Shown here piece by piece: positions 3,012-61,493 of a stretch of 64,000 nt of DNA. Each line of letters starts with the position of its first letter. The first letter of the stretch is position 1. Made by a program: the position numbers and the translations under genes. The notes beneath the pieces were generated by a model. It worked only from the letters and a program-made list of their open reading frames with translations, was not told the origin of the DNA and did no database searches. This DNA comes from an uncultured Clostridia bacterium (GTDB lineage Bacteria > Bacillota > Clostridia > Christensenellales > Borkfalkiaceae). The stretch spans positions 31,632-95,631 of the forward strand of contig CALVMH010000003.1 in the NCBI GenBank assembly GCA_944343275.1, read 5' to 3'.

Positions 3012-5460
3012 CGATCGTTCCTCCCTTTGTTTTATCGTTGTCCTTGGGCAGGGGCGGCACGGACGGTCCGCGCAGAAAGCACCCGATGCCCCTGAAAATG
3101 TGCCCGTTTGCAAGCTCCATAAAGCCCTGCGCGAAGTTGTACGGCATCGCCTCCCCCGCCGACATCGACATGGAGATGAGCGAATTGCTGTTGAGGATGC
3201 GCGCCAGAAAGTACGCGCCCTTTATTTTGTTGTCCCGTTCCTTGCCCTCGGGGAGCTTTTTTGCCGCCTTCATCTGTTTTTTGGCGACATTCAGCACGGC
3301 GGAATGCAAAATTTTCCCCATCAGCCCCGCGCGGGCAAGATAGGAAAACCGGCTCTCGAGCGTGATGGGCTTTTTTGCGGGCAGCGGCGGAATGCATTGC
3401 CCGCTCATCTGTTCAAATAATTCGTCGGAGACGTCAAAAGTCGCACCCGCATACGCTTTTAAGACTTCGGGCGAATAGGGCGCACCTTGCTCCCCCTTGA
3501 GGGTGAGCGCCTGTTCGAGGAGAACGGTCTCCGCGTCCGAACACAGCCGCAGCGCATATTCTCCGTCCGCGAGCGCCCATTCCCTTTGGGAAACGTCAAA
3601 ATAGCGCAGGTCGCTTTGGGAAAGCGTGAGGGTAACGCGCCGCGTCTCCCCTGCCGCAAGGCGCACCTTTTGAAAGGCTTTGAGCTCGTGCTCGGGCATA
3701 AAAACTGCACCCGCGGGCGCTTTTACATAGAGCTGCACCACTTCCGCGCCGCCGCGCGCGCCCGTGTTTTTCACAAGACAGGAGACGGAGACGTTCTCCC
3801 CTTCCGTCTGCACCTGCATATCCGACCAGACAAAGTTCGTGTACGAACACCCGTAGCCGAAGGGATAGCGCACTTGTTTCTTTGCCGTTGCGTAGTAGCG
3901 GTAGCCGACGAAGATGCTCTCTTTGTACACCTCGTTCTCGCTCTTTCCGAACGCCTCGCCGAAGGGCACGTCCTCATAGCGGAGCGGCCACGTCTCCGCG
4001 AGCCTGCCCGCGGGGTTTGCCCTTCCGAACAGCAAATTCGCGCACGCCCTGCCGCCGCTCTGTCCGGGCAGATACATGTTGAGAATAGCCCTCACCCCGT
4101 CTGCGAACGGCAGCTCCACGGGCGAGCCGCCGAACAGCACGACGACGACCTGTTTGCCCGCGTCTACGAGGGCGTCGATAAGTGCGAGCTGATTTTCAGG
4201 CAGGCGCATGGTTTCCCTGTCGCACCCCTCGCTCTCCACATAATCCGTAAGACCCGCAAAGACGAGCACTTTTTGGAACTTCTTTGCCCCGTCAAGCGCC
4301 TCATAAAGGAGCGCCCCGTCCGTCGAGGTGCTGTTTTCCGCATAGCCGCGGGCATACGCATAGCGGATGCCCATCGTATCGAACGCCGCTTTGGGCGACG
4401 TCAGTTTTGTAGGGGTGATCATGGAACTGCCCGCGCCCTGATAGCGCATCTTCTCAAACAGATCGCCGCAGACGAACAGGTCCTCTTTTTCGTCCAACGG
4501 AAGAATGCCGTCGTTTTTGAGAAGCACGGCGCAGTCCTCGGCGATCTTACAGGCAAGCGCATCGTTTTCCTCAAAATCGCAGTCGTCGGGCTGCTGCCGC
4601 ACATACTTCTCCACGAGCGTCAAAACGTTTTTGACGGCTTCGTCCAGAACTTCCATGGGGAGCGTGCCGTCCTTCACCCCGTCCAAGACCCACTTGCGGC
4701 AGATGGCGGTATCGCCCGGCATTTCCAGATCGAGCCCCGCCTTCAAGCCCGCAAGACGGTCGTGCGTGGCGCCCCAATCGGTCATGACCAAGCCGTCAAA
4801 CCCCCATTCCTTGCGGAGAACGTCCGTTAAAAGCCACCTGTTCTGACTGCAATATTCCCCGTTGATGCAGTTATAGGCGCACATCATCGCGGCGGGACGG
4901 CTTTCCCTGACGACGATCTCAAACACTTTGAGATAGATCTCGCGGATGGCGCGCTCATCGGCAATGCTGTTGCCCATGAAGCGGAAGGTTTCCGTGTTGT
5001 TGAGCGCAAAATGCTTGACGCAGGCGCCCACGCCTTCGCTCCGGATGCCCCTGACTTCCGCCGCCGCCATCTTGCCCGCAAGATAAGGGTCTTCGGAAAA
5101 GTATTCGAAATTGCGCCCCGCCGTGGGGTTGCGCTTGATGTTCGCCCCCGGACCCAAAACGACGTGGACACCGTATTTGTGCGCTTCTTTGCCGATCGCC
5201 GCGCCGATTTGATAAGCATTTTCAAGGTCCCATCCGGAAGCGACGGTCGCCGCCGTGGGGAAAGAAGTAGCGGGCAGACTTCCCGTTACGCCGTTATCGC
5301 CCCCTTCCGTCTGAACGCGCAATCCGTGCGGCCCGTCCGACATGCGCAGCGACGGGACCCCCAGCCTCGGCACGGGGTTGGTGTACATAAAGTCCGTTCC
5401 CGCAACGAGCGCCGCCTTTTCCTCTATGGTCAGTTCCGACAGCAAACGCCGTATCTCCAT
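3004..5460 (-). CDS. glycoside hydrolase family 3 beta-glucosidase (BglX-like)
   Basis: GH3 motifs [32 protein letters not shown] and GLVMTDWGA (nucleophile Asp), followed by a C-terminal Fn3-like region. Start set to ATG 5460 ([19 protein letters not shown]), downstream of AAGGAG. It overlaps the symporter start by 8 nt. Confidence 0.9.
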
Positions 5461-5522
5461 CCGACAAGAAACTCCTTGTGAGATTTTCACAAAAATTATA
5501 TAGCATTTATCAGCAATAAGTC

Positions 5523-5551
5523 TTGCATTTTTGTTTTATATTCGTTATAAT
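5523..5551 (+). promoter_or_regulatory. sigma-A-type promoter for the AraC-family gene
   Basis: TTGCAT (5523-5528), 17-nt spacer, TATAAT (5546-5551). The GGAGG RBS and ATG 5577 follow. Confidence 0.5.
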
Positions 5552-5576
5552 TGTTTTGACTTTGGAGGAAACGACC

Positions 5577-6785
5577 ATGCAAAATCTCGATTACGCCTAC
5601 CTGTGCACCGTGATCGGCAACCTGACGGGGGTCCCCATCCGCATCTTCCGCGGCGAAAAACAGGTTTTTTACCATGCCCTTGTCCGTTTGCCCAAGGACC
5701 CCATGACTGCCTTCCGGAAGGATATTCTGGCGATCGGCGCGCATATCGGATACTATATCACGCCGCATTTCCACTCCTACGGGATCGTCGGCGACGGGGA
5801 ATACAAGCTCGTCATCGGACCCTCCATCCAGACCGCGAGCAGCGAACAGACACTGCGGGAACTTGCTTTCAACTGCGATGTGCCGCCCGACGAAACTGCC
5901 GATTTTATGACCGGCATGAAAGGCATCGTTCCCATGCCCCTTGAAAGCATCCTGCAGATCCTGTGCGCCATGAATTACATCATGAACGGCGAAAAGCTCG
6001 GCCTTAGCGACATCATCCTTTACGACGCGGCGCAGCGGGACATGCGGACGGCGTTGGAACAGGAACGCGCAAAATCGGACCTGGACGCAGACCCCGCCGC
6101 GGTCGGGGAAGGGCAGAACGTTCATAACACCCTTGCGCTGGAACAGACGATCGTGAACTTTGTCCGCCGCGGCGACACCGCCGCCCTGAAAGAGTGGATC
6201 GCCGATGCGCCCGCCGTCCGCAGCGGCGTCCTTGCCGCAGATCAGCTGCGTCAGATCAAAAATACGTTTATCGTGACCGCCACCCTCGTCTCGCGCGCAG
6301 CCATCCGCGGCGGCATGGACGTCAACGACGCGCTCACGCTCAGCGATTCCTATATCCGGCGGTGCGAACTGCTCACAGGGCTTTCGGAGATCGCCAACCT
6401 GCAATATTGCATGGTGTTCGATTATGCGGAGCAGGTGGAAAAACTCCGCCACGGAAGCGCCCCCACAAAGCTCGTTCTGGACGTCACGAACTATGTTCAC
6501 CACCATCTTTCGGAGCGCATCACCACCCAAGAGATCGCGGCGGCGCTCTTTCTGAGCCGCTCCCGCCTGTCCGTCCGCTTCCGCCGGGAAGCGGGCGAGA
6601 ACCTCATCGATTTCATCCTGAAAGAAAAGACGGAGGAGGCAAAGCGGCTGCTGCGTTACAGCGATAAATCCGCCGCGGCGATCGCCGCCTATCTCGGCTT
6701 TTCGTCGCAGAGCCACTTTTCCCGCGTGTTCAAAAAATATGCGGACTGCCTGCCGGGCGAATACAGAAAGCGCACCGCCCCGTAA
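5577..6785 (+). CDS. AraC-family transcriptional regulator
   Basis: C-terminal double HTH typical of AraC/XylS (ITTQEIAAALFLSRSRLSVRFRREAGENLIDFILKEKTEEAKRLLRYSDKSAAAIAAYLGFSSQSHFSRVFKK). It is divergent from the GH3 operon. Start ATG 5577 follows GGAGG. Confidence 0.85.
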   Translation: MQNLDYAYLCTVIGNLTGVPIRIFRGEKQVFYHALVRLPKDPMTAFRKDILAIGAHIGYYITPHFHSYGIVGDGEYKLVIGPSIQTASSEQTLRELAFNCDVPPDETADFMTGMKGIVPMPLESILQILCAMNYIMNGEKLGLSDIILYDAAQRDMRTALEQERAKSDLDADPAAVGEGQNVHNTLALEQTIVNFVRRGDTAALKEWIADAPAVRSGVLAADQLRQIKNTFIVTATLVSRAAIRGGMDVNDALTLSDSYIRRCELLTGLSEIANLQYCMVFDYAEQVEKLRHGSAPTKLVLDVTNYVHHHLSERITTQEIAAALFLSRSRLSVRFRREAGENLIDFILKEKTEEAKRLLRYSDKSAAAIAAYLGFSSQSHFSRVFKKYADCLPGEYRKRTAP

Positions 6786-6834
6786 GGCGGCGCGTTTTTC
6801 CACGGCGGGCGTCACGCGCCCCGATCCCGCACTA

Positions 6835-6866
6835 CGCAAACAGGGCGCCGAAGCGCCCTGTTTGCG
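6835..6866. terminator. 14-bp GC-rich hairpin between the AraC stop and the tRNA 3' end
   Basis: CGCAAACAGGGCGC-CGAA-GCGCCCUGUUUGCG. It abuts the tRNA-Leu 3' end (6867). No long U tract on either strand, so terminator function is inferred. Confidence 0.5.
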
Positions 6867-6953
6867 TGGTGCGAGTAATCGGATTTGAACCGATACGGTG
6901 TCGCCACCGAGGGATTTTAAGTCCCTTGCGTCTGCCTGTTTCGCCATACTCGC
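6867..6953 (-). tRNA. tRNA-Leu (anticodon UAA), class II with long variable arm, CCA encoded
   Basis: Reverse complement reads GCGAGUAUGGCGAAACAGGCAGACGCAAGGGACUUAAAAUCCCUCGGUGGCGACACCGUAUCGGUUCAAAUCCGAUUACUCGCACCA. Acceptor stem is GCGAGUA/UACUCGC, anticodon stem-loop is AGGGA-CUUAAAA-UCCCU, and the T-loop is GGUUCAAAUCC. Confidence 0.9.
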
Positions 6954-6983
6954 ACGGTTTCGTCCCACGGAAGGAACGGGAAA

Positions 6984-7012
6984 ATTATAACAAATCGGGA
7001 AGCAGATGTCAA
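6984..7012 (-). promoter_or_regulatory. consensus sigma-A promoter driving tRNA-Leu
   Basis: On the minus strand: TTGACA (7012-7007), 17-nt spacer, TATAAT (6989-6984), about 30 nt upstream of the tRNA 5' end. Confidence 0.65.
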
Positions 7013-7143
7013 GCGCGTTTCGAGGGAGGGCTTGCGAATGCGAAAAAATCCGCCCGCGCCGAGGGGGTGAAATTGTCATGCTTTTTTATGATTTTCCCGC
7101 GCGAACGTTTGCCTTCGCCCGCAAGATCCTGTATAATAGATGC

Positions 7144-7731
7144 ATGGAGAAGCACCCTTTCCGAGAAGAACACGGCGCGCAGGACGCCCGCGACGCGGCA
7201 GAAGCGCCGCCGCAGACCCGGACGGCGGCAGCCACACCGACGCGCCGCGCACAGTTCATACAATTTTTGAAATTTACGGGATTTTCCCTCTCTGCGGGGG
7301 TCATTCAGCTCGTTTCGGACGGCATTTTATGCGATTGGACAGGCTGGCTTCCGTGGTGGCCCGCCTATCTCATCAGCGTGCTCTTGTCCGTCGTCTGGAA
7401 CTTCACGTTCAACCGCAAGTTCACCTTCCGCGCCGCCAACAACGTCCCGATGGCAATGGCGCTGGTCGCGCTCTATTACTGCGCGTTCATCCCCGTTTCG
7501 GTGCTGGGCGGCGACGCCATCGCCGCGCGGCTTCCCGCAAATCTGGGACTGCTGGTCACCTTCATGATGATGGTGCTGAACTTCGTAACGGAATTTCTCT
7601 GGGACAAGTTCGTCGTCTTCAATGCGAACGTCACGGAAAAGCTCGTGCGCGTCTTCTCCCGCCGCCGCACGGAACAGGCGCCGACCGCCTCCCCCGAACA
7701 GGAAGCGCCAACGGACGCCTCCGAACAATGA
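7144..7731 (+). CDS. GtrA-family membrane protein
   Basis: FIQFLKFTGFSLSAGVIQLVSDG...WNFTFNRKFTFR, with four TM segments typical of GtrA-like proteins. Start set to ATG 7144, which lies only 6 nt after a TATAAT, so the mRNA may be leaderless. Confidence 0.7.
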   Translation: MEKHPFREEHGAQDARDAAEAPPQTRTAAATPTRRAQFIQFLKFTGFSLSAGVIQLVSDGILCDWTGWLPWWPAYLISVLLSVVWNFTFNRKFTFRAANNVPMAMALVALYYCAFIPVSVLGGDAIAARLPANLGLLVTFMMMVLNFVTEFLWDKFVVFNANVTEKLVRVFSRRRTEQAPTASPEQEAPTDASEQ

Positions 7732-16696: not shown

Positions 16697-17769
16697 CCAT
16701 CACGCCCAGACAGATCTGCTTCTTTCTGGCGGGCATCGCGCCCGTCGGAAAGCTCATTTTGCTGCCCGCGAACCTCGCCGCGACGTGCGGGAACGACCTG
16801 CTCCTGCCCGTGCTTGCGCACGTCCTCGTGCAGTCCGTCCTCGTGTTCTGCGTGCTGTTGCTGGGACGCAGGGAACGCACGCTCTGTACGCTCCTGCGGG
16901 ACGCCTGCGGAAAGACGGCGGCGCGCATCGCCGCATGCCTGCTTGCCGCCTTTTTGCTCTTTGCCGCCTTTGTGCCCGTCATCGAACAAAAACTCCTCGT
17001 CAGAAGCACGTTTTACGACACCATCCCCGCCTATCTCGTCTTTACGCCCTTTTTCCTCTTTGCGGCGTACATCTGTGCCCGTCCGCTGCCGACGCTCGGG
17101 CGCCTGTGGGACATCCTTGCCCCGCTCGCCCTTACGGGCATGGCGGGCATTGCGCTGTTCTCCGCCGGCAGCGCCGACCTCGGCGCGCTTGCCCCTGCGG
17201 GCGCGGCGGGGGCAGGCGGATTTTTGAAGGGGGTGCAGACGGCGTGCGCATGGTTCTTCGACGCCGCACTGCTGCTGTGCCTGATCGGACGCTTCCCCTA
17301 CCGGAAGGGGCTTGCCCTCGGCGGGGCGCTGTGTTCGCTGGCGGGAGGCGGCGTGCTGCTGTTGCTCCTTGCCCTCTTCTACGGCGTCTTCCCCGGCATC
17401 GCCGTCATCCAAACGCCCGCCTTTTCGCGCATGAGCGGCTTTTTTGCGGGGATGACGGTGCTCGGCCGCATCGATTACTTTTTTATCTTTGCCGTCGCCT
17501 TTGCGATGACCTTCCACGCCGCCCTGCCCGTTCAGTGCGCCGTCGGGCTGCTGACGGAGGCATTCGGGAACAAAAAATACCTTGCGCCCGCGCTCTCCGT
17601 CCTCTTCTCCGCCCTCATGCTCTCCGCCGTCTACCTCGTTCATTTCCACACGTCCGCCGCAGTGCGGACGGTGACGGAGACGCTTTTTTGGATCTTCCCC
17701 CTCTTCACCGTCCTTGTGCCGCTGCTCGCTCTGCTCGTCTTCGGGAGGCGCCATGAAACGCTTTCTTAA
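16693..17769 (+). CDS. spore germination protein, GerAB-type (APC-like permease) subunit
   Basis: MTITPRQICFFLAGIAPVGKLILLPANL..., about 10 TM segments, and an ATGA overlap with the A subunit. Confidence 0.8.
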   Translation: MTITPRQICFFLAGIAPVGKLILLPANLAATCGNDLLLPVLAHVLVQSVLVFCVLLLGRRERTLCTLLRDACGKTAARIAACLLAAFLLFAAFVPVIEQKLLVRSTFYDTIPAYLVFTPFFLFAAYICARPLPTLGRLWDILAPLALTGMAGIALFSAGSADLGALAPAGAAGAGGFLKGVQTACAWFFDAALLLCLIGRFPYRKGLALGGALCSLAGGGVLLLLLALFYGVFPGIAVIQTPAFSRMSGFFAGMTVLGRIDYFFIFAVAFAMTFHAALPVQCAVGLLTEAFGNKKYLAPALSVLFSALMLSAVYLVHFHTSAAVRTVTETLFWIFPLFTVLVPLLALLVFGRRHETLS

Positions 17770-18934
17770 ACGGCTGCCCAACCGCCTGTGGGTGCTGCTG
17801 TGCCTCATCGTCCTGTTCGCCTTTTTCGCCAACGACTTCGGGCTGGTGGACATCCAGAAGACGGCAATCGTGCTTGCTGCGGGCATCGACCGCACGCCGG
17901 AAGGCTTCACGCTGACCGCGCAGATCGCCGTGCCGAAGGGAACGGACCGCACGACGGGCGGCACCTCCGGCGTGGAGATCGGCGGACAGGGCGAAAACAT
18001 CTCCGACTGCCTTTCCGATCTGTATGCCAAGACGGGCTGGGTCCCCAAGCTCGTGTTCTGCGATCTCCTCGTGCTGGGCGAAGGCGCCGTCCGCGAAGAC
18101 GTCTTTGACGGACTTGACTACTTCCTGCGCAACGAATATATCCCCGATTCCTGTCTGCTTGCCGCCTGCGAAGGCAGCGCCGCGGAGCTGCTCTCCTCCG
18201 AAAGCGCCATCGACGACACGTCCGCCCTCGCCCTCGGAAAACTCTTTTCGGACGCGGCGACCAAGTCGGGACAGGTGATGACGACCACGCTGCGCGAATT
18301 TGCCATCGGGTATTTCAACGAGAGCCGCAGCGGATACATGCCCTATGTGCGCATGCAGCAGCAGGAGAAGGGCGCGCAGAAAGAGGCGCAGGCATCCGGC
18401 GGCGCGCAGAACAAGCAGGGCGGACAGAGCGGACAGGACGGCGCACAAAAAATTTACAGCGCACGGGAGACCGCGCTCTTTTCCGAAGGCAGACTCGCCG
18501 CCCTGCTCTCTCCCGAAGAGACGCTTGCGTTCAGCCTGCTGAAAGGGAACGTATACGCAGGCACGTTCACGACGGACGGGCGCTCCTATGTCATTCTCAA
18601 AAACAAGGGAAGCGTGGACGTCGGGACGCGGGACGTGCCGGACATCCGCCTGTATGCGGGATGCAAGGTGCAGCTGTGCGGCGAACGGGAGACCGCTTCC
18701 CCCGAACGCCTTGCGCGGGGCGAACTCTCCGAACAGGAGGAGGCACATGTCTCCGAAGTGCTCACGCAGTACGCAAAACGCCTGTGGGATACCTGCGCCG
18801 CCGCCGACTGCGATTTCCTCTTTTTCCGCCGCTCCCTGCGGCGCGCCTCCCCCGCCCTGTACGGAACATGGAAGGATGTCCCCCTCTCCTCCGTTCCCGC
18901 AGACATCGTTGTCCGCGCCGAAAGCCTGCGCTGA
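17753..18934 (+). CDS. spore germination protein, Ger(x)C-family lipoprotein subunit
   Basis: MKRFLKRLPNRLWVLLCLIVLFAFFANDFGLVDIQKTAIVLAAGID, a typical GerAC N-terminus. Start ATG 17753 follows GGGAGG. Confidence 0.8.
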   Translation: MKRFLKRLPNRLWVLLCLIVLFAFFANDFGLVDIQKTAIVLAAGIDRTPEGFTLTAQIAVPKGTDRTTGGTSGVEIGGQGENISDCLSDLYAKTGWVPKLVFCDLLVLGEGAVREDVFDGLDYFLRNEYIPDSCLLAACEGSAAELLSSESAIDDTSALALGKLFSDAATKSGQVMTTTLREFAIGYFNESRSGYMPYVRMQQQEKGAQKEAQASGGAQNKQGGQSGQDGAQKIYSARETALFSEGRLAALLSPEETLAFSLLKGNVYAGTFTTDGRSYVILKNKGSVDVGTRDVPDIRLYAGCKVQLCGERETASPERLARGELSEQEEAHVSEVLTQYAKRLWDTCAAADCDFLFFRRSLRRASPALYGTWKDVPLSSVPADIVVRAESLR

Positions 18935-18976
18935 AATGCCGAAAAAATTTTTTTCGGAAAATTTTTTCCAAACCCC

Positions 18977-19004
18977 TTGACAAATCCGAAAGACCTGCTA
19001 TAAT
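18977..19004 (+). promoter_or_regulatory. near-consensus sigma-A promoter with extended -10, driving the candidate ncRNA
   Basis: TTGACA (18977-18982), 16-nt spacer, TGcTATAAT (18996-19004). It lies 43 nt after the gerC-type stop. Confidence 0.7.
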
Positions 19005-19010
19005 AAAGGT

Positions 19011-19625
19011 ACAAAACGAAAATAACTTTCATGAAACGTTATTGAAAAACAAGGAAGGATGGTCCGATGCACAAGTAACTTGCCCAAGGGCAACCGAACG
19101 AGCGGCAGACACGGAATGTCTGTCATCGCAGGGAGACAGGGCGAAGGAAGAAACGTCTCCGAAAAATTCATGAAAAGGGAGGTACTCGACGATGTTCAGG
19201 TTCATTTCCCAAGGATTGAAGATTTCGTAGAAGGAGGACAGACCAATGTACAATTCCACCCGGAGGGCGGAGAAGTAATTCGGCTTTGAAGATATACGCG
19301 GCGGAAACAAGTGCCGCGACGGGTTCTGACCCAGATATACAAGAGCGGAAGCCGAGACTCTCTCCCACCCGCACAACGGACCGAAGAGGACGGAACCACG
19401 GATCCCGATGGTCTGCCGCAGATGCGTTACCCCGTAGAGACGCTTTGCGGAAGAAAATCGGCAGGCTTACAGGACGATGCAACCGGTGGCATCCGAATGC
19501 AGGCAGGCAAGGGATTCGCCGAAGCCTTCGGCGAGGGACGCGGGCGGCGCAGGGAATTCTCTGCCCGGATCACAACTTCATCACGATAACACTCCCCCGT
19601 GCGGTTGCGCGGGGGTTATGTTTTG
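19011..19625 (+). ncRNA. candidate large (~615 nt) structured non-coding RNA, class unassigned
   Basis: Bounded by the promoter above and an intrinsic terminator (19594-19625). No credible ORF is present: the frames are Arg-rich or low-complexity. It looks visibly less GC-rich than the flanking genes. Many local hairpins occur, including 19021-19043, 19104-19124, 19132-19160, 19297-19318, 19476-19493 and 19516-19534. The next gene downstream is convergent, so this is not a 5' leader. Confidence 0.6.
19594..19625 (+). terminator. intrinsic terminator ending the candidate ncRNA
   Basis: CCCCCGUGC-GGUU-GCGCGGGGG followed by UUAUGUUUUG. Confidence 0.75.
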
Positions 19626-19861
19626 CCCTCTCCCACCGCGCTGCCGCGAACGTTCGCCAGGCATGCCGCCTTGCGGCAACCGCACGGGGAACGCCAAAAG
19701 CGCCTACCCTGCGGCACAGGCGCAGGGCAGAGGACCATGGCTTTGCCGTGCGGAAACGGGAACGGTTGCGCTCAGAATGACAATGCGGGGCATTCTTCTC
19801 TCCCCGCATAGGTTTCCTGCAAACAACGCAGCATTTTTGCGGGATTTTCGCAGAGAAAACA

Positions 19862-19900
19862 AGAAACATAGCAATAAGCCCCGCGTAAAGCGGGGCTTAT
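19862..19900 (-). terminator. intrinsic terminator of the S8/LRR/Opp operon
   Basis: Hairpin AUAAGCCCCGC-(5 nt)-GCGGGGCUUAU at 19874-19900, 17 nt after the last stop codon. On the minus strand it is followed by UGCUAUGUUUCUUGUUUUC. Confidence 0.75.
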
Positions 19901-19916
19901 TTCGATCATCATCAAA

Positions 19917-20159
19917 TTAACGAAGCCAAAGCCAGAGCAGCAAAAAGGTTATGCCGAAGCCAAACAAAATGGCGAGGAAGCGCGGCAGATAGGCAAGATA
20001 GCCCGCGCGGATCAGGGCGCGCTTTTCCTTGCGCGTCGGCTTATCCTCTTCGTTCACCTTTTTCCCGCGGTCGGGACGGTACCACGGCATGCCTTCCACA
20101 TTCATGTCGGCGACCGTTCTGCCGTCGTCCCATTCAGGCAGCTGCTTCTTTTTCATCAC
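19917..20159 (-). CDS. small membrane protein (hypothetical), last gene of the operon
   Basis: 80 aa with a basic/acidic N-terminal part and one C-terminal TM segment (YLPRFLAILFGFGITFLLLWLWL). AGGAG lies 6-9 nt upstream of GTG 20159 / ATG 20156, and the start is 4 nt after the OppF-like stop. Confidence 0.55.
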   Translation of the reverse strand: MMKKKQLPEWDDGRTVADMNVEGMPWYRPDRGKKVNEEDKPTRKEKRALIRAGYLAYLPRFLAILFGFGITFLLLWLWLR

Positions 20160-20162
20160 AGA

Positions 20163-21329
20163 TCACTCCTGCGAATACAGATGGCAGGCACACAGATGTC
20201 CGTTGCCGTAGTCGATCAGCTTGGGCGCGACCTCTTTGCAGATGTCCATGCAATGCGCGCAGCGCGTGTGGAACTTGCAGCCCGCAGGCGGATTGGCAGG
20301 GCTGGGGATGTCCCCCTGCAAAATGATCCGCTTGACCTTGTAATGCGGGTCGGGCACGGGAACGGCGGAAAAGAGCGCCTGCGTATAGGGATGCATGGGG
20401 TTGGCGAAGATATCCTTTTTGTCCCCCATCTCCACAAAATTGCCGAGATACATGACGCCAACCCTGTCCGAGATGTGCTGCACGACGGACAAATCGTGGG
20501 AGATGAACAGATAGGTGAGCTTGCGGTCCTTTTGCAGCTCCATCAAAAGGTTGACGATCTGCGCCTGAATGGAGACGTCGAGCGCCGAGACGGGTTCATC
20601 GCAGACGACGAACTTCGGATTGAGCGCCAGCGCACGGGCAATGCAGATACGCTGCCGCTGCCCGCCCGAAAATTCATGGGGATAGCGGTCAAAGTAGAAA
20701 TCCTGCAAGCCGCAGTGCCGCATGACGGAGATGACGTAATCCCTGTATTCGGATTTCGGAACGACGCCGTGCACTTTCACCGCTTCGCCGATGATCTCCC
20801 CGACGGGCATGCGGGGCGGCAGGCTGGAATAGGGGTCCTGAAAGACGATCTGCATCTGCGGACGCAGAGCGCGCATCGCCTTCCCCTTGACGGACGTGAT
20901 GTCCTGCCCCTCAAAATACACCTTTCCCGCCGTGATGTCGTGCAGGCGCAGGATGCTCCTGCCCATCGTGGACTTGCCGCAGCCCGATTCGCCGACGATG
21001 CCGAGCGTCTGCCCGTAAGGAACATCGAAGGAGACGCCGTCCAACGCCCGCGTATACGTCTTTTTATATTCGAGCTTGCGCTTGGTGCGCATGAGAGGCG
21101 CGCCGTTTTCGTCCGTAGGCGGCTCCTGCCCCTCCTTTGCCTCCACGGGAACGCTCTCTTTGACGAGCTTCCACTCCTTGCGGATGAGGAAGTGCTTTTT
21201 CAGCCCTCTGACTTCCAGGATGTTCGCGGGGTCGTGCACGAACGGCTCTTCCCGTTCTGCACCCGGTGCGCCGTCCGCTGCCGCGCAGGGCGGCTGTGCC
21301 GCGACTTCCTCGCGCCGTTCTTCGCTCAT
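20163..21329 (-). CDS. ABC transporter ATP-binding protein, OppF/DppF-like, with N-terminal extension and insertion
   Basis: Walker [10 protein letters not shown], signature FSGGQRQRICIARAL, Walker B FVVCDEPVSALD, and an Opp-type C-terminal Cys motif (CKFHTRCAHCMDIC). Start ATG 21329 forms an ATGA overlap with the upstream stop. Confidence 0.9.
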   Translation of the reverse strand: MSEERREEVAAQPPCAAADGAPGAEREEPFVHDPANILEVRGLKKHFLIRKEWKLVKESVPVEAKEGQEPPTDENGAPLMRTKRKLEYKKTYTRALDGVSFDVPYGQTLGIVGESGCGKSTMGRSILRLHDITAGKVYFEGQDITSVKGKAMRALRPQMQIVFQDPYSSLPPRMPVGEIIGEAVKVHGVVPKSEYRDYVISVMRHCGLQDFYFDRYPHEFSGGQRQRICIARALALNPKFVVCDEPVSALDVSIQAQIVNLLMELQKDRKLTYLFISHDLSVVQHISDRVGVMYLGNFVEMGDKKDIFANPMHPYTQALFSAVPVPDPHYKVKRIILQGDIPSPANPPAGCKFHTRCAHCMDICKEVAPKLIDYGNGHLCACHLYSQE

Positions 21330-32186: not shown

Positions 32187-35100
32187 TTAACCCCTCCTCT
32201 TCTTGCTGCGCACGAGCAGCACGACGCCCACGGCAATGCCCGCAAGCAGCACCGCGCCGCCCACCGAAAGTCCGACGATGAGCCCGACGTTTGTCCCCGC
32301 AGGTTCTTCGGGCGGCGTCTCGTCGCCGCCGTCATCCGGCGTTTCGGGCTGCACGGGCGGCAGCGCAGCCTTGGCTGCAAGCAGCGTTGCGTATTCGTCT
32401 TTGACGAACGCCTGCTGCGCCGAACCGAGCGCCGCGTAGATGCGTTCGAGAACGGTGATGGTTTCCCTGTCCGCCTCGGTGATGTCCGCAGGCAGCGGCA
32501 GGGCGCCGACACGGTCCGTAAAGTCGATGGCGCTGCGCGAAATGGCGACCTCCTCCGAGACGACGAACTGCGAACCGCTGCCGTTGATGTCTCCGAAGTA
32601 CTGCTGCCAGATATAGGCGTCGTACCCCGTGTGGTTGGCGGGAACGGTGATTTTCAGCTGGCTGTAAACGAGCGCTCCGTTCTGCGCTTCGCCGATGGCG
32701 GCGATGAAGTTGTTGTAGATGTTGACGTCGCCGTCGCTCACGACGCCCGCGGCGGGCGCGTAGGCATAGCTCTCCAACGTGGGCGCGGTGGCGGCGTTGA
32801 GCACGACGGACGTAAGGTTTGTGCAGCCGAGGAACGCCGCGGCGCCGATGATGCGCAGATGCGCGGGCAGCGTGACCGTTGTAAGATGCTTATTCCCCGC
32901 GAACGCATAGGCGCCGATGCGGATGGTGCGATCGCGCACCGTGAACTGCGAATCCTCTTTCCCTTCGGGATAGGCAACAAGCGAGACATAGCCGTTGCTG
33001 CCCGTGTTGCGGTATAGCACGCCGCCCTCGGCGAAATACCATGCGTTGCCTTCCGCAACGGTGATGGCTTCCAGCTCACGCGCCTCTGCGAATGCGCGTT
33101 CCGAGACCGACACGACGGAGGCGGCAAGCTCGAACGTGCTGACCTGCGAATTTTGGAACGCATAGGCGCCGAGCGTTTTGAGCTTGGGCAGGTCGGCGCT
33201 TACCGCATCCGTTCCCGCAAAGGCATACGCCCCCACTTCTTCCGCATTTTCAAAATCGATCGCACCGATCCCGGTCGCATAGAACGCCCCTTCACCGATG
33301 GATCGGACGTTTTTGAAGTTCACTGCGCCATTGCCCGTTCCGATCTTGCTCTGATACCAGAAGGCATACGCGCCGACGCGCTCCGCGTTGGGGAAGGATG
33401 CCGTCGTCATTTGGGCAGAATTTGCAAGCCCCGTGATCGTGCCGTCCTCCTTCGTTTCGAACAGGGCGAAGGCGTAAGCGCCGATCTCCCTGACGGTCTG
33501 AGAGGACGCCTCCGTGAGAAAGACGTTGCGGAAGGCATAGTCGCCGATCGTCTCGATGCCGTCAAAGTCGAACGTGGTCAGTCCCGTGCCCTCGAAGGCG
33601 TGGCTGCCGATCTCGGTGACGCTTACGGGAAGGGTGATGGTTGTCAAATCCTTGCAGCCGAGGAAGGCGGCATCGCCGATGCGCTCCAGCTTCCATACGC
33701 CGTCCGTGACATTCGTAAAGGTGATGGTGCTCAGCCCCGTGCCCGCAAAGGCATAGCTGCCCAGCTCCTCGACGGAGACGGGAACGGTGATTTGGGTCAG
33801 CTGTTCGTTATAGGCGAACATGCCCGCTGCAACGGTGCGAAGGCCGCTGCCGAGACCCACGGTCGTCAACGCGGCGCAGTTTGCAAATGCGTTCGCGCCC
33901 ACGGCAGGATCGCCTTCAAACGTGACGGATGAGATGCCTTCTCCCACTGCCGTGACCATGACGGAATATTCCGCCTTCTGCGTGTAATACTCCGACGCGA
34001 GATCGGTATACTCCTCCACGGAGATATAGGTCGTCTCGCCGCTGTCGTCCTGCTGTGCAAGATAGCCGTTGTAGGTGAACGCCCCCGCGCCGAGGTAGGA
34101 AAGCCCTGCGGGCAAGGTCACCTCTGTCGCGCTCAAAAACGGCGTGTTGGCAAAGGCATAATCGCCGATGTAGGTGACGTTTGTCAGGTCGGGCAGCGCC
34201 GTGATATAGGACTGCTCGAAGGCGTCGTTGCCGATGTAGCGCAGCTTCCCGCCCGTCAGCGTGACGTTGGACGTCAGCTGCATTTCGGAAGGGATCTCCC
34301 CCTGCCCCGTCGCTGCTTCATCATATGCCAGATAATGCGTCCCGAGCGAGAAGAAGGCGTAGTCCTCGATGACTTCCACGTTGGTAAGGTCAATGGAGAA
34401 CGTGCTGAGCACTTCCTTGCCAGATGCGTCATAGCCGTGATTGGTCAGCCCCGCAAAGGCATTGGCACCGATGGTGCGCACGGTAGCGGGAACGGTGAAT
34501 TTCTCGTCCACGCCCGCCGCCACGGGATAGGCGACAAGTTTGGTCATTGCGGCGTTATAGAGCACGCCGTCCTTGGAAGAGAAGTACTTGTTGCCCGCCT
34601 CCACGGTAAACTCCGCAACGGGAATGCCGTAGAAGGCGGCAAGCCCCGTTTCGCGGATGCGGGCATCCTTGGCGATGATGAGCTTCGCAACGCCCGTTGC
34701 ATAGAGCGTCTGCGAGCCCAAAATTTCCAGCCCGTTCGGGATGGTGAAACTTGCCAGCGCGGAGCAGCCCGCAAACGCCTGGTCGGCAATTTCGTACACC
34801 GTTTTCAGGAACGTGACCTGCGAAAGCGCGGTACAGCCGTAGAACGCCTGCACGCCGATGGTGTCCACATCGCCCGTGAAGACGACGCTTTGCAGCGCCG
34901 TACAGAAGGCGAAGGCGGCGTCGCCGACGTTTTTGGAGCCGATCTCCACGCGTTCCAGCCCCGTGCAGTAGGCAAACGCGAGGGCGTCCGCCGTGGTGTT
35001 TTCGGAGAGGACAAGCTCCGTAAGCGACGAGCAATAGGCGAATGCCTGTTCGCCGACGATGCCCGTCTTGGAGAGGTCCACGGACCGCAGCGACGTACAT

Positions 35101-38100
35101 CCGTAGAACGCCATGTTGCTGATGAACGTGGTGCTTGCGAGGTCATACTCCCCGTTCGGCTCCTGCGTGCGCGACGTGCCGTTGAAGCCGAGTTCGAGGC
35201 TTTCATCATAGATGAACGCGCGCGAGCCGATGATCTTGACGTTGTTGAGCCCGTGCACCGTTTTGAGCTTGGGGTTCCAGCCCATGCCGAAGGTCTGGAT
35301 CTGTTCGAGCGTGGAGGGCAGCCATACCGTTTCGAGATTGTCGCACCCGTAGATGGAGGCGTTCATGATGTACTGCACGCCCTCCGGGATGATAATCTCG
35401 GTGATATAGTCGTTGTCGAAGAAGGCGTTCGGATAGATGTAGACGATGCCCAGATCGTCGGGGATCTCCACGACGCCGTTTTCATCCCCCCTGCCCGTGT
35501 AGGAGCGCAGGTAGATGCCGTCCACATAGAACTCCTGCTTGACGGTGACGGAACAGGAGGCGCTTGCATAGCTGGGTCTTGCCCTGACGGAGACGGACGC
35601 ATTGCCCGACTCCTTTGCCGTGACCGTCGCACAGAATGCGTCGTCCACCCATTTCCCGTCCGCCCCTTCGTATCCGGGGCACACTTCGATGTTGGAGCCG
35701 GACGCCGACCATGCATCCGTCAACTGTGCTATGATCTCGTTGTACAGTTCTTTGTTGAGCGATTGCAGATTATAGGGCTGCAGCGTGAAGGAGACAACGC
35801 GCGATTCGCCGCGTTCGAGCACGAGGGAGGAATCGGATAAGGTGACGGAGACGTCGTTCTTGCCGATGGTCGCCGTGCGGGCGCTGACGTTGACGGTGAA
35901 CGTGAGTTTTGCCCTTTCGTTCCCCTGCGGATACACGGTGATGGTCGTCGTGCCCGTTTTCAGACCCGTGACGACGCCGTAGTCCTTCTCCTGCGCCCCT
36001 TCCGTTCTGAAATCGGCGACGGTGGCGACGCTTGTATCGGAGCTTTCCCAGACGAGGGGCTTCGACCAATAATTTTCCACGAAGTTGCCGCCGATGTCCG
36101 ACTTGACGGTGATATACTGCGCCAGATCGAGACGGCTGCCTTGGTCGATGGTGTATTCGTCACGCGCGGTACGCGTCTTTTCGAGCTGCATGTCCGTGCC
36201 CTCGATCTGACAGTCGTTCACGTTGACGGCATACGTTGTGGTGTTCTTGGCATAGTCCATGACCTGCAGATAGATGTTGCCGCCATGTTCCTGAATGACC
36301 GACCAATACGCCGAGACGTCGAGTTCGAGCGAAGTGACGTCGTTGAGTTCGGGATCGAAGTAATAGGCGGGAATGACGCCGTCCGACAGCTCGACCAGCC
36401 CGACGGGGGAACCGTTTGCATCCAGATGATCGTAAGTATAGACGGCAAAGCCCTGCAGATAGTGATTGTCGTATACGTTGAATTGCAGCGTCTTGTCCCC
36501 GTCGTCGTCGCGGACATAGGTGTCCTGCACGACGGGCGCCTCGTTGTCGATGGTGAAATCAAAGGAGAATGTGTTCTTGTTGCCCTTGCCTTCGTCCCAA
36601 TCGAGGTAGCACTCCATCGAGAAGGTGTACACGGAGTTGTTGGCAAGCCCCAATTCGCGCACGTCGAATTCGACCAGCACATAGCCGCCCGACTGCTCGC
36701 CGCCCGAAGAATAGGACTTCCTGCCGTTGTAGCCCGTCTTGGTCCAGATGACCTCCCCCGTAACGCTGTCCGTCACCTGCATGTCGATGCGCTTTGCGCC
36801 GCGCAGCAGACCCGCCGCAATGGAGTGGATCATGTAGTTGCCGTATTCCGAACCCGAGGAGGTGAGCGAAGCATACCGCTCCACCGTAGGCGGCATGGAA
36901 TAGCCCTGCGGAAGGACATAGCTGTATGCGCCCATGCCCCACGAACTGAGCGTCTGTTCGCCGTTCTCGTCCTGCGAATTGAAGCCCGCCATGGGCAGCG
37001 TCGCATAGACGTCGGGCTGCAGCTTGTCCTCGTCTAGCACGGACGTATCTTCAAACGATGCGCCCACTTCGTATTCGGTGACGTCGAGCATGGGTGCCGC
37101 CGCCCAATCGCCGTAGAAGGCGAGGAAGGGCAGGTTGAGCCCGATGCCGTCCGCGTTCATGGAGTTGAGGCGGACATACCCTTCGACGTACATGCCGTTC
37201 TTGAAATTTTCGTCAAGATAGCGCTTGGAACTCTCCGTCAGCTGCAGCCGCACCTGCACCTTTGCCGTGGAATACCCGCCCAGCGACAGGGACGCCCCCG
37301 CGATCTCCGCGCTGCCCTCCGTGGCAGTGGCGTCATAGGTATACGCCGCGTCCAGCAGAGACGAAAGTTCGGCGACCGTTCTGCCGTCGCTCGACATGCT
37401 CTCCGTGAACACGACGGGATCGAGCACATAGTTGAGCGACTGCGCAGACATGTTGGTGATGTTGAATTCGAGCACATATTCGCCCGTGCGGTTGGGATCG
37501 TCCCCCAACGAGAGCTTGGGCTTGTTGGACGCCTGCCCGCGCAGATCGTTCGCGTCGTCCTTGGGGACGGCGGGATTGGGCGAGGAAGGCGCGTCCACCG
37601 TGAGGTATGCTTTGGTGGTGATGGACTTGACGATGTCCGCAAGCCCCGCGCCCTGCTTTCTCGGAGAATAGGGATTGCCGTATTCGTTGTTGGCGATGGT
37701 CGCCGTGCTCATGATGAGGCTGTACGACAGATCGCGCACTTCCGCCGCCGTCAGCGTCGGGTCAAGCTCCTTGACGTACTGCCGCACGAGGATGAGCGCC
37801 CCCACGAGGTTGGGGCATGCCATGGACGTTCCGCTGATGGTATCGTATTCGTCCCCGCCGGGGAAGGAAGAGGTGATCTCCCCGCCGTGCGCCGTGATGT
37901 CGGGCGCGAGCGTCAGGTCGGGCAGCACCCCCCACGAGGAGAAGTCGGACATGAAGGGACCCGCGAGCTGCTCGCGCGAGACGGTCAGCGTGCCGCTGCC
38001 GCGTTCGGCGAGGATGCTGCCGTAGTCCATGGAGATGAGGCAGCTGGGAATGGTCTTTTGCGTGCCGACGGAAACGCTCAGCGTGCCCGATACATTATTA

Positions 38101-47393: not shown

Positions 47394-50300
47394 TCAAGTC
47401 CTTGTGAAGGATGTGACGTTCCATGTGGCATTATCTGCCCCGACCCCAAACGTATAATCGGTTGTGCCGTTTACGCCTGTGATCGTATAGGTTTGCGTAT
47501 AAGTGTTCGCGTACTGATTTTCGCTTTGTGTCGCAACATACTTCAGTGTAATGACAATGCTTGCACTGTCCGTGTAGTCAACCGTCAATGTTGCGGTACA
47601 ATCTTGGAAAATCTTACGAACACTTGCCCAATACGCATTATCGCCTGTAAATACCTCGGACTGGTCTTGCTTCTCCACGCTTCCGGAATGAGCGCAGGAA
47701 AGGCTATTCGCCGTAAACGCATCTTCATAAACATAGTCATCGGGGCGCAACAGGCCACAATAATTCATCCCGCTCCAAACAGGGACCACAAAGCCGCGCC
47801 AATTGTTGGAATCATATCCCCCCGACGCATTTTGCGTGGGCACGGCGTTTGCCTCCAACGTACCGCTTAATACGACCGTTTCCCCTTGGGAAATTCCAAA
47901 CCGTTTTACATACTGCGTAAATCCTGAAGGATTGGAAGCCGTAAACGCACCGTCTGCGTCCCAAGCGGGATGCGTGGGAGCTGCGGGAGCTGCGGGATAG
48001 TAGGCATTTTCCAAGAGATATGCCCGATATCTTGCCGCAGCCTCGGATGCATCGAGGACATCGTTCTGAATGATCAGATCTTCCGTCGACATCTGTCCGC
48101 TGTATTGCGTGACGTTGAATGCCATGCCCTCCTTCGCCGCGCTCAGCATGATCAGATCGACAAAATCTTTGACCGTGCCTTGCACGTTCCCTTCAAACCG
48201 CATGTCTGCCGGATATGTCAGGACCTTGTTGCCGTTCATATAATACACGATCCCGTCCGCCCCCATGGTGATCGTCATATAAACGTTGGGTGTCGTTTTG
48301 ATCGTATCCCACTGAAAGCCGCTTGCAGGCTGCGCACCCGACGTCGACGGGAAGGCATTCGCAAGTTCCCGCACGCCATTGTCGTTCGTAAACCAGAACT
48401 TATCCAGCAACGCCTTTGTTGCGGGGTCGGAGTTCAGATTTACCGAATTCGCAACATTCAATTGCAGACTCGGAAGCGAAACGTTGATATTGCCCCACTT
48501 GGAACGCATGGCAACGGCGTCAAAGTCACTGTTGGCAGATTGCAGGAAGAAGGAGACCGTAATACCGCTTTGCGGATCGATCTTGCCGGAACCGAATTGC
48601 TCCGCCGCAAGTTCAACGCCGTTTGCCGCGCCGCTTTGCAGGATCGCGCCGCACGTCTCGCAGACATAGCTGCCCGCAACGTCCCCCGCCTGCCAATTAT
48701 GTGTGGGAACAACGGCAAGATTTGCATAGAAGACAACGGATTCATCCGCCGCCGCGACCGCAATCCCCTTGTAACCGACCGTCGTTTCGGTGTGCGCAAC
48801 AAATTCCGTCGCACCTTGCGATACATCGGCGATCTCGCCCTTGGTAAGCGCTGTTTCGTCGGCGACCGTCACAATGAAGTAAGCGATGCCGCCCTCTGCC
48901 GCCGCCACGCCCGTCTTGTTGAACTCAAAACCGTATGCCGACGTCAGCCCCGTATCCACCGTAACGATCGTATAGGTCTTCCCTGCAACGGTACAAACGA
49001 CGATCTCGCCGTCCGATGCGGAAACAAACTTACCTGCGCTGCCGCTGCGGAGCGTGAAAGAATAGTCCTTCCAGCCATAAGCAACATCCTCGGAAGAATC
49101 GTTTGCATTGAGGAAGAGGTTTTCGGTGGAGCCGACTGCCAACCCCTCAAAGATGAAGATGAGTTTTCCGCCGATAGCGACGACCTGTCCGCCCTCGATG
49201 TCCGCTGCATTAGCGTCCGACGATTTGTTCGCCGCGGAAATCGTCGTCGAATTGATCAGTACACCGTTCTCATCCCGCGTTTCCACTACATACGCCTTGG
49301 GCGCTTCCCGGAAGGAAGGAATTTCCAGCGTGACGGTTTTCCCCGACAATCCTTTAAATGTCACGCCGTCCACCACGAGATCGCTTTCGCCGACGGGGAC
49401 TTGGATCCCGTTGATCCAAATCGTATTGATAATGGTATCGCCACCCTGATCGCTGTATGTGATCTTGACCTCGCCGCCCTTTGTGAACGTTGCGCCGTTC
49501 GAGACATTTGTCGTCACGTCATACAGGGAAACCGCCGAAAGGTCAAACTTCACACCGAGCGTCTGCAAGGTATAGGCGTTGTCATAGAAGAAGTTCATTT
49601 CGGCAGTGCGCGTCTCGGATTTGAGCGCAATGACGACGCTGACTGCCGTTCTGTCGGCATTAAATTCGGCATAGCCGTATTCTCCCGCAAGGCGCGCCAT
49701 GGCAACGGCTTCCTCAGGCGCACACGGCGCATCAAAGTTGACCGTAAAGGCGACATAACGCGTATAGGCGGCATGCTCTTGCGCAGGAATGCCGAGCGCC
49801 GTCTTCTGCGCCGTGCCTTCTGCATCGTCTGCAAACTTGCTGCCGACCCCCGCAAGCGCGAGCTGCGCATAGCCCGTAGCAATGCCGTCGGATATGGCGG
49901 TCACGTCATCCCCGACGGATGCCGTCAGATTTTGTGTCGGAATAAAGTTTGCAGTCCCGACTACAATCGCGTCCCCGGCTGCCGCGATTCCTTCAAGATG
50001 ATTGTTGACAACGGCGCCCGTTGTCTGCCACACGTTCTTCCCGTTCGTATTCTTTCCGAAAATCATATTCGGATCGGACATGAATCGGATGTTCAGCGTA
50101 CCGCTGACGGGAAGCGCTGCGGAATAGGTGAAATAAGGAGCTTGTTTTCCGAGATCGGCGCCTTTTGCAAACAAACTGTAAGTGATCCACAGCTGTTCGT
50201 TCAGATATGCAAGGCGGATGCGAAGCTGCGGCAGCGTGCGCATGAAAGCAATATAAGCCTCTTCCGTGATCTCATTGCCGTCGGGATCGGGTTTTCCGAG

Positions 50301-61205: not shown

Positions 61206-61312
61206 ATAAAAACAGGCAATCTTTGATCCCCTCAAAAATTGCCCAGACGAACGACATTTCCGCCCTGCGGCTTCACGCGGTGCTCCGCTTTTGCTTCGTC
61301 AGTTGCCGCAGG
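61206..61312 (-). promoter_or_regulatory. ZTP riboswitch (pfl motif) with terminator expression platform, upstream of pflA
   Basis: Minus-strand RNA is UGCGGCAACUGACGAAGCAAAAGCGGAGCACCGCGUGAAGCCGCAGGGCGGAAAUGUCGUUCGUCUGGGCA. P1 is UGCGGC/GCCGCA. The conserved ACUGACG, GGAGC and CGUCUGGGCA elements are present, and GACGAA/UUCGUC has pseudoknot potential. Next comes the terminator GGCAAUUUUUGA-GGGGA-UCAAAGAUUGCC plus UGUUUUUAU, whose 5' arm overlaps the aptamer 3' end. Confidence 0.8.
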
Positions 61313-61329
61313 CGTCTTCAACTGCCCAT

Positions 61330-61358
61330 ATCATACCACAGCTTGCGCGGCTTGTCAA
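61330..61358 (-). promoter_or_regulatory. sigma-A promoter (extended -10) of the pfl operon
   Basis: Minus strand: TTGACA (61358-61353), 17-nt spacer, TGgTATGAT (-10 at 61335-61330). Confidence 0.65.
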
Positions 61359-61493
61359 GGAAACGGGCGTATTTTGTCGGAAAAAAATTTTCCGCACATA
61401 CTAAATATTGTGTTTCATGAATGGATGTTCCACAAAATATAGATATTTCCTTTGTGAACGAAGCCGACGGCGCGGCAGGCAAAGACCGCCCGC

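Follow-up and report, generated by a model that had tools for sequence, protein, structure and literature searches.

A stand-alone structured RNA with three conserved Shine-Dalgarno-led mini-cistrons lies beside gerC in Candidatus Gallimonas and its close relatives

The DNA analysed here (the window) is a stretch of 64,000 nucleotides (nt) from an uncultured Clostridia bacterium (contig CALVMH010000003.1, assembly GCA_944343275.1). Between its gerA-gerB-gerC operon (GerC, 17753-18934) and its opp operon, window positions 18958-19624 hold the stand-alone gene of a structured RNA that had not been catalogued before, and the conserved unit is bounded by a consensus promoter of the vegetative (sigma-70) type and by an intrinsic terminator. 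The RNA folds into covariation-supported helices, two long-range ones of which close nested domains, and its conserved 5' module (~270 nt) bears three mini-cistrons led by Shine-Dalgarno (SD) sequences, in which start, frame and stop are kept while the peptides drift. Downstream follow an open reading frame (ORF) of 80 amino acids (aa), then oppF, oppD and oppC. As the 80-aa ORF (19917-20159) is encoded on the minus strand, it converges on the RNA gene, in agreement with the initial annotation of this stretch, which had been made from the letters alone. This ORF, at the end of the opp operon, is conserved at 79-85 aa, has a hydrophobic C-terminus and belongs to no Pfam family. The gene callers placed nothing in the RNA-gene interval of the window.

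Conservation as seen by blastn and nhmmer runs from just upstream of the -35 hexamer to the terminator, with none past it, and in relatives whose GerC is 64-70% identical the RNA interval retains ~79% nucleotide identity (blastn). An exact 22-mer scan over one genome per GTDB species recovered 14 species, all Candidatus Gallimonas or other metagenome-assembled genomes (MAGs) of chicken-gut Clostridia, with one copy of the gene each in the DNA fetched; a degenerate scan of metagenomes added one further variant, and two metagenome contigs hold identical copies. Three distant MAGs (L039, L040 and L041; GerC 53-54% identical) carry shorter RNAs of 398-443 nt, and in a MAG with GerC 52% identical the RNA gene was not found. 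The family thus comprises 18 distinct homologous sequences in total, 398-719 nt long (614 nt in the window), and is confined to Candidatus Gallimonas and its near relatives. Our literature search returned no paper connecting Gallimonas with a non-coding RNA.

The RNA gene always lies near the 3' end of gerC, and its orientation and other neighbour differ among clades. Within the clade of the window the gene reads in the direction of gerC and the opp operon comes next (in the window spoIIE lies at 40043-42271, 20 kb away); one clade has it in inverted orientation, diverging from spoIIE; and in L039, L040 and L041 it stands between gerC and spoIIE, co-directional with both. Since promoter, body and terminator are kept through these rearrangements, the element is an independent gene and not a leader. 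In L040 the RNA gene (6073-6470) is placed between direct-repeat arrays (139 nt x2, 51 nt x3, 38 nt x4; repeats at 5250-5670 and 6860-7160) and also between long inverted repeats (48-76 nt, 88-96% complementary, 1.3-1.6 kb apart), an arrangement that could offer a substrate for inversion of the kind found in the other clade. An invertible segment was considered and rejected, as long flanking inverted repeats occur in L040 alone and not in the window, L025, L039 or L041. In L005, ~900 nt of extra gene-free, non-conserved DNA (5954-6874) separates the RNA terminator from a gene for a small membrane protein.

The -35 hexamer (18977-18982) and the extended -10 element (18996-19004), including its TG, score 12 of 12, and no second promoter of such score exists at 18000-21000. 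Both hexamers, their spacing and the A/T-rich block upstream are kept in every homologue having a 5' end. The start of the predicted transcript was set 7 nt past the -10 element (±2 nt) and its end at the U-tract of the terminator. Within the window the terminator sequence is unique; its stem does not vary among the 15 Gallimonas sequences, where a U to C change in the loop of two is the sole difference, and the whole is nearly identical in L040 and L041, with a different hairpin in L039. Promoter and terminator had both been recognized by the initial annotation, as had the lower G+C content of the region. The 5' half (18900-19300) has a G+C content of 0.42-0.49 and the 3' half one of ~0.60, the flanks being at 0.60-0.66. 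Past the terminator by 67 nt, in non-conserved spacer (19676-19689), lies a 14-nt perfect inverted copy (GCAACCGCACGGGG) of the terminator 5' arm and loop, which may be the relic of a rearrangement.

Folding an alignment of 15 sequences (A6) with RNAalifold yielded a consensus of 103 pairs, 19 of them with compensatory changes (features in Table 1). In this model 96.3% of the cells are standard pairs, as compared with 42-52% in slid controls whose partners were shifted by 1-3 columns, and 19 pairs and 68 cells are doubly changed as compared with at most 11 pairs and 20 cells when slid, a level that 0 of 500 shuffles reach. A fuller model of 148 pairs has 91.7% standard pairs (38-49% slid), with 36 pairs and 116 cells doubly changed. 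The best-supported helices are 19105-19110:19117-19122, 19132-19137:19155-19160, 19280-19287:19348-19355, 19399-19406:19511-19518, 19465-19471:19498-19504 and 19476-19480:19489-19493. The z-score of the minimum free energy against shuffles is -3.1 for the plus strand and -2.3 for the minus strand; that blastn conservation coincides with the promoter-to-terminator unit speaks more decisively than this against chance. The initial annotation had held that an RNA gene should show conservation and covariation in relatives, and the 18 distinct sequences with 19-36 compensatory pairs bear this out; we have little doubt that the stretch is a real structured RNA gene. Five of the hairpins drawn in that annotation (19021-19043, 19105-19122, 19132-19160, 19297-19318 and 19476-19493) are conserved, three with compensatory changes, and the sixth, 19516-19534, is 65% paired across species; the long-range CUGCCG...CGGCAG pairing suggested along with them is present in the window sequence and is not conserved in homologues.

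Table 1. Features of the RNA gene in window coordinates
Feature	Position	Strand	Description
Promoter	18958-19004	+	A/T-rich upstream stretch, TTGACA, 16-nt spacer, TGcTATAAT
Predicted transcript	19011-19624	+	614 nt; conserved unit between promoter and terminator
5'-proximal hairpin	19021-19043	+	AAUAACUUU-CAUG-AAA(c)GUUAUU; invariant in Gallimonas; 100% paired in 14/14 sequences
Mini-ORF0	19051-19078	+	SD-like AAGGAAGGA 19051-19059; AUG CAC AAG UAA 19067-19078; MHK*, 3 codons
Hairpin GCAGAC-ACGGAA-GUCUGU	19105-19122	+	3/6 pairs compensatory, e.g. C-G to U-A in 5 species
Hairpin GGAGAC...GUCUCC	19132-19160	+	Variable purine-rich loop; three pairs compensatory
Long irregular hairpin holding mini-ORF1	19161-19226	+	96-98% paired; both strands almost invariant
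Mini-ORF1	19192-19230	+	SD GGGAGGU; AUG...UAG, 12 codons, MFRFISQGLKIS*
Mini-ORF2	19230-19278	+	SD GAAGGAGGA 19230-19238; AUG...UAA 19246-19278; 10 codons, MYNSTRRAEK*
Long-range helix closing the 3' domain	19265-19272:19559-19566	+	GGGCGGAG (inside mini-ORF2) with CUCUGCCC; 99% paired, 15 sequences
Sub-domain	19280-19355	+	Closing helix 19280-19287:19348-19355; nested hairpins 19297-19318 and 19321-19332
C/U-rich stretch	19356-19374	+	GAGACUCUCUCCCACCC; conserved block in A6, mostly unpaired in the consensus fold
Variable 3' domain	19399-19518	+	Long-range closing helix 19399-19406:19511-19518
CACAACU motif	19571-19581	+	Conserved, just past the 19559-19566 strand; ACAAC in 15/15 sequences
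Intrinsic terminator	19594-19624	+	Hairpin 19594-19615, CCCCCGUGC-GGUU-GCGCGGGGG, 9 base pairs (8 G-C), then U-tract

Several helices can be followed into the distant homologues. The pairing of the 5'-proximal hairpin is kept through changes, as L041 has GUGAC...GUUAC in its place. Reading the sequences directly, the hairpin at 19132-19160 becomes GGAAGCC:GGCUUCC in L041 and GGGC..:..GCCC in L040, and the helix that closes the 3' domain becomes GGGGCG:CGCCCC in L041 and AGGGGC:GCCCCU in L040; within A6 this helix shows a G-U to A-U change in L004, its 3' strand being invariant in 15 of 15 sequences. In the hairpin that holds ORF1, the outer helix (19161-19171:19216-19226) contains a tandem purine mismatch and the inner one (19176-19183:19203-19210) pairs SD1 to ORF1 codons 4-6 with the AUG in the apical loop, whereas in L039, L040 and L041 a CAUAUCG...CGAUAUG stem buries the AUG instead and the SD is in the loop. 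The sub-domain is 99% paired, with G-C to A-U compensation in either direction at two pairs. A GUCGAG-N-CUCC-like motif of the C/U-rich stretch is present in L039 and L041 too, and the stretch, which resembles an anti-SD, could be a candidate pairing seed. The ACAACU motif is kept in L039 and L040, and ACAAC in L041.

The 3' domain is the variable part of the RNA. In its closing helix five of eight pairs are compensatory and 99% of the cells are paired, a single cell being unpaired, and the hairpins nested within it, 19423-19444 and 19465-19504 (inner stem 19476-19493), covary. Most Gallimonas hold the domain in single copy, it is largely absent from L039, L040 and L041, and in L019, L012, L005, L014 and L020 an insertion of ~100 nt (A6 columns 529-631) duplicates the module (CGCAAGAGCG...CUCCGCGGUA...AAGGGCG). 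Being absent, single or duplicated, the module therefore numbers 0, 1 or 2 across the family.

The most distinctive feature of the RNA gene is its three conserved mini-cistrons, each made of SD, AUG and stop. The initial annotation saw no coding frame, which holds for proteins, and overlooked these mini-ORFs. On the sense strand they are the only SD-led ATG ORFs of at most 15 codons, three as compared with 0.06-0.26 expected in dinucleotide shuffles (P≤0.003 where all three were scored). The SD, AUG and in-frame stop of ORF0, the latter after 2-4 sense codons, are found in 17 of 17 homologues with varying codons; the ORF has 3 codons in most of them and 5 in L039, where a lost stop is replaced two codons later, and its TAA is changed to TGA in L017. 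ORF1 is present in 18 of 18 homologues, with swaps between TAG and TAA. Its 12 codons in Gallimonas become 10, 10 and 8 in L039, L040 and L041, so that length changes are always in frame, and the peptides diverge to MKNSRHLKIK, MRIFQSLKIK and MKLRVLEL. SD1 and its AUG are fixed, whereas the spacer between them ranges from 5 to 11 nt and changes in sequence. ORF2 has 10 codons in 18 of 18 homologues with variable interior codons; its start is AUG, replaced by GUG in 4 of the 18, and its stop is TAA, replaced by TGA in L018. Hence every start or stop codon change seen preserves function (AUG to GUG, TAA to TGA twice, TAG to TAA and back, and one relocated stop).

Codons 4-12 of ORF1 are nucleotide-invariant in Gallimonas bar one GGA to GGC change, and therefore a constraint at the RNA level acts there as well. 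As a baseline, gerA of nine species has 15% of its amino-acid-invariant codons nucleotide-identical and a longest invariant run of 11 nt, as compared with a run of 22 nt in the RNA core; a pattern scan of metagenomes that tolerated synonymous changes recovered no synonymous variants of these codons. The stop of ORF1 directly abuts SD2, and the gap between ORF1 and ORF2 is 15 nt, or 17 nt in L041. In the window the two ORFs share a frame with the TAG between them, and a read-through fusion was considered; it was rejected because the 17-nt gap puts the frames apart in L041. A pairing of ORF0 (AUGAACAG) with the ORF1 loop (AUGUUCAG) was likewise rejected upon inspection, as variants break it and do not compensate.

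Based on these data we propose a new lineage-restricted stand-alone structured RNA, the 5' module of which would engage ribosomes and which would act in trans as a translation-gated regulator or scaffold, a proposal whose chances we take to be evenly balanced; the gating mechanism itself is put forward tentatively, with prospects that are balanced at best. Ribosomes would load on the three mini-ORFs; SD1 would be masked by pairing with ORF1 codons 4-6, and the abutting of the ORF1 stop and SD2 would couple ORF1 to ORF2. Codons 7-9 of ORF2 are the predicted 5' strand of the helix closing the entire 3' domain, and since they take part in this helix, translation of ORF2 and folding of the 3' domain would be mutually exclusive. 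Ribosome loading together with ORF1-to-ORF2 coupling would thus compete with formation of the 3' domain, and if so the conformation or stability of the RNA would depend on translation and could report ribosome traffic, the RNA being neither a cis leader nor a messenger RNA (mRNA) for micropeptides. Possible, and yet to our mind rather doubtful, is a bolder reading in which this is a new RNA class, a highly expressed ornate RNA with a ribosome-gated fold and three obligatory mini-cistrons that would be a sensor or effector of translational status and may be tied to the sporulation and germination locus (gerABC-RNA-spoIIE) that has retained it; here translation of the last mini-ORF would unzip the closing helix of a 3' domain with 0, 1 or 2 modules.

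Dual-function RNAs of Firmicutes, such as RNAIII/hld of Staphylococcus aureus, SR1/SR1P of Bacillus subtilis and VR-RNA of Clostridium perfringens, come close to what we propose. They too are stand-alone structured transcripts of several hundred nt with their own promoter and terminator, which in our RNA are conserved across three gene arrangements and mark an independent transcription unit; they too carry one or more small SD-led ORFs towards the 5' end, along with stretches rich in C/U that might base-pair to SD regions. Unlike them, the window RNA has three tandem mini-ORFs of 3-12 codons with non-conserved peptides and long-range domain-closing helices that overlap an ORF, and it shows no relationship to them in sequence or in Rfam. 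In STAB-SD elements SD sequences have a role in ribosome protection, and in a variant of the proposed idea the SDs of the mini-ORFs could serve likewise. A further variant would involve minigene-type effects: according to PMC8708949, peptidyl-tRNA drop-off is most active at minigenes that combine a strong SD with a UAA stop, and by coupling these can adjust the cistron that follows. ORF0, with its strong SD, three codons and UAA stop, recalls minigenes such as lambda bar and axe-txe mg2 (PMC8708949), whereas the mini-ORFs of the window belong to a structured RNA that stands alone and has no protein cistron downstream of them.

Several points weigh against the translation-gated RNA that we propose. 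Conservation of SD, AUG and stop could be a by-product of RNA constraint, since much of ORF1 and ORF2 is located in invariant helices, and the ORFs are supported by no more than about five independent changes at start or stop codons and by two or three in the length of ORF1. The invariant helices (the ORF1 hairpin and, within Gallimonas, GGGCGGAG:CUCUGCCC) lack covariation of their own, alternative pairings exist, for instance of CUCCG with CGGAG, and several helices in the consensus fold of the 3' domain reach just 65-85% pairing. With 18 distinct sequences the family is narrow; its hosts are uncultured MAGs, and both transcript and translation are predictions.

The main rival is a purely non-coding ornate or scaffold RNA, a folded particle or protein-binding scaffold that possibly self-associates, in which ribosomes would play no part and the mini-ORFs would be incidental to conserved purine-rich helices and loops. 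The strong covariation and the long-range helices agree with it, as do the pairing of SD1 in a conserved helix, the nucleotide invariance of most of ORF1 that coding alone leaves unexplained, and the modular 3' domain, duplicated in five species. In addition, the loop of the module hairpin (A6 columns 443-463, window 19426-19445) carries a palindrome of 6-8 nt in 14 of 15 species (CCGCGG, GCCGCGGC, ACCGGU or UACCGGUA), recalling the symmetric kissing loops of OLE and GOLLD (PMC12286853). As a kissing-dimer signal, however, the palindrome was rejected: it is not significant, about 30% of the shuffles of each sequence doing as well, and the window copy lacks it. A scaffold alone also leaves three SD-AUG-stop units that far exceed chance, that survive the strong divergence and length change in L039, L040 and L041, and of which ORF1 keeps SD and AUG across a varying spacer, and we therefore hold it to be an unlikely account, albeit the one to be taken most seriously next to our proposal.

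The mini-ORFs could alternatively belong to a small polycistronic mRNA encoding functional peptides of 3-12 residues, the remainder being a long structured 3' untranslated region. Canonical SDs, spacing, starts and stops are conserved, and three of the five ORF1 substitutions within Gallimonas are synonymous. The peptides of ORF1 are nevertheless not conserved in distant homologues, ORF0 has just 3 codons in most members of the family, the nucleotide invariance goes above coding needs and more than 300 nt of covarying structure lie outside the ORFs, all of which makes an mRNA for micropeptides improbable.

The initial annotation had proposed a GGA-rich RNA titrating CsrA, as do CsrB and RsmZ, with which the window RNA shares a purine-rich sense strand (58.6% A+G), several GGA triplets and a number of 3' modules that varies, as that of sponge repeats can. 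Its 23 GGA are within the expectation of dinucleotide shuffles (20.1±3.1) and hence no enrichment, and only ~7 of them are kept by 13 or more of the 15 species, mostly in the SDs of the mini-ORFs or at helix positions. Two A(N)GGA sites, AAGGAUGG and AAGGAUUG, had been taken as CsrA-type contexts; the better of them, AAGGAUUG (19211-19218), is lost in L039, L040 and L041. Unlike CsrB and RsmZ, the consensus structure contains no array of repeated GGA-loop hairpins. A CsrB-type sponge was accordingly rejected and is, in our estimation, very improbable.

Equally improbable is a cis leader or attenuator, in which translation of leader peptides controls the terminator and hence a downstream gene, ancestrally spoIIE. 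The gene is indeed upstream of and co-directional with spoIIE in L039, L040 and L041, and, as in leader-peptide attenuators (the erm and cat leaders, the leaders of amino-acid operons), SD-led ORFs of 8-12 codons, with SD or codons in alternative pairings, precede an intrinsic terminator. An attenuator would, however, have a co-directional gene downstream; in the window that gene is convergent, in the inverted clade the element is divergent from spoIIE, and all features are kept in every arrangement. Inspection of the sequence revealed no segment upstream that is complementary to the terminator strands and could act as antiterminator, and the terminator hairpin is 100% paired in the consensus. 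Between ORF2 and the terminator there are, unlike in attenuators, ~315 nt of independently folded covarying RNA, and in L041 a TATAAT -10-like hexamer, read directly from the sequence, is located between the terminator and spoIIE.

The initial annotation also envisaged a new or divergent ornate large RNA. The former part stands, given the covariation and the conserved promoter and terminator; the latter, a divergent member of OLE, ROOL, GOLLD, raiA or a housekeeping family, we consider exceedingly unlikely. The size is similar to that of OLE and ROOL, and with OLE, ROOL and GOLLD (Rfam; PMC12286853) the window RNA has in common the ~600-nt class, numerous covarying helices that are closed over long range, an occurrence in Clostridia or the gut and a possible self-complementary loop. 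Against Rfam 15 (4227 families) there was, however, no match at gathering score and none at E≤10 in 18850-19950, for housekeeping and large-RNA families alike, and seven homologue loci gave no match at E≤1. The covariance model of OLE (RF01071) matched neither the window region nor the seven homologue loci, and those of ROOL, GOLLD, raiA and HEARO gave no match either. ARAGORN returned no tmRNA, and the absence of RNase P, tmRNA, SRP and 6S elements reported earlier agrees with the lack of Rfam or ARAGORN matches for them. To our knowledge, SD-AUG-stop units are not a described feature of OLE, ROOL or GOLLD, and the genus-level range of our RNA is narrow.

Nor does the surrounding DNA favour these families. 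The oapA, oapB and oapC neighbourhood of OLE is absent, as had been noticed for oapA, the neighbours being gerA-gerB-gerC, the 80-aa ORF without Pfam match, oppF and oppD. ROOL and GOLLD have a phage, prophage or tRNA-island context (PMC12286853), whereas the RNA gene has a fixed chromosomal place beside gerC; a phage origin was rejected, as three conserved blocks found no match in viral contigs. Without a covariance-model, phage or oap match, membership in OLE, ROOL or GOLLD therefore fails the tests run, and the RNA, matching none of the 4227 Rfam families, is classed as a new family, unusual in having a module that would engage ribosomes.

A decayed protein-coding gene or non-functional spacer, which public gene calls across the RNA gene in two homologues might suggest, is refuted by 3-5 stops in each of the six frames of the window and stops in every frame of all 18 sequences (in line with the initial annotation), by pairwise indels of which 13 are and 173 are not multiples of three, by the absence of any Pfam match at E≤1 for its ORFs, by conservation above that of synonymous sites of neighbouring genes and by the compensatory base-pair changes. 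The calls in question, L008 5495-6289 (minus strand, 264 aa, opposite to the RNA) and L010 5607-5825 (plus strand, 72 aa), lack conservation across species and are probably spurious.

Bacteria have yielded few large structured RNAs with covariation support, and new biology has come with each new class, as with OLE, ROOL and GOLLD. In the RNA described here, features that are usually separate come together: its fold is ornate and covarying, and it has three conserved start-stop units for ribosomes, one of them overlapping a helix that closes a domain. Should it be true that ribosome loading gates the fold, this would be a new way of coupling RNA structure to translation. The significance is tempered by the narrow taxonomic range and the uncultured hosts; in practice, a family model would put right the annotation of chicken-gut Clostridia, where gene callers either pass over the locus or fill it with spurious ORFs.

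Elsewhere in the window, on the minus strand, lies a ZMP/ZTP riboswitch (61234-61316; 53.8 bits against a gathering score of 39). Just upstream of it, at 61329-61390, nhmmer weakly matched the promoter portion of the RNA-gene profile (E=0.012), and therefore riboswitch and RNA gene probably share similar strong promoters. The same strand carries two giant ORFs of 2480 and 2064 aa (32187-39629 and 47394-53588) and an 84-nt tRNA (6870-6953), and in the related locus L014 a ribosomal protein L10 leader is found on the plus strand at 2202-2328 (62.9 bits).

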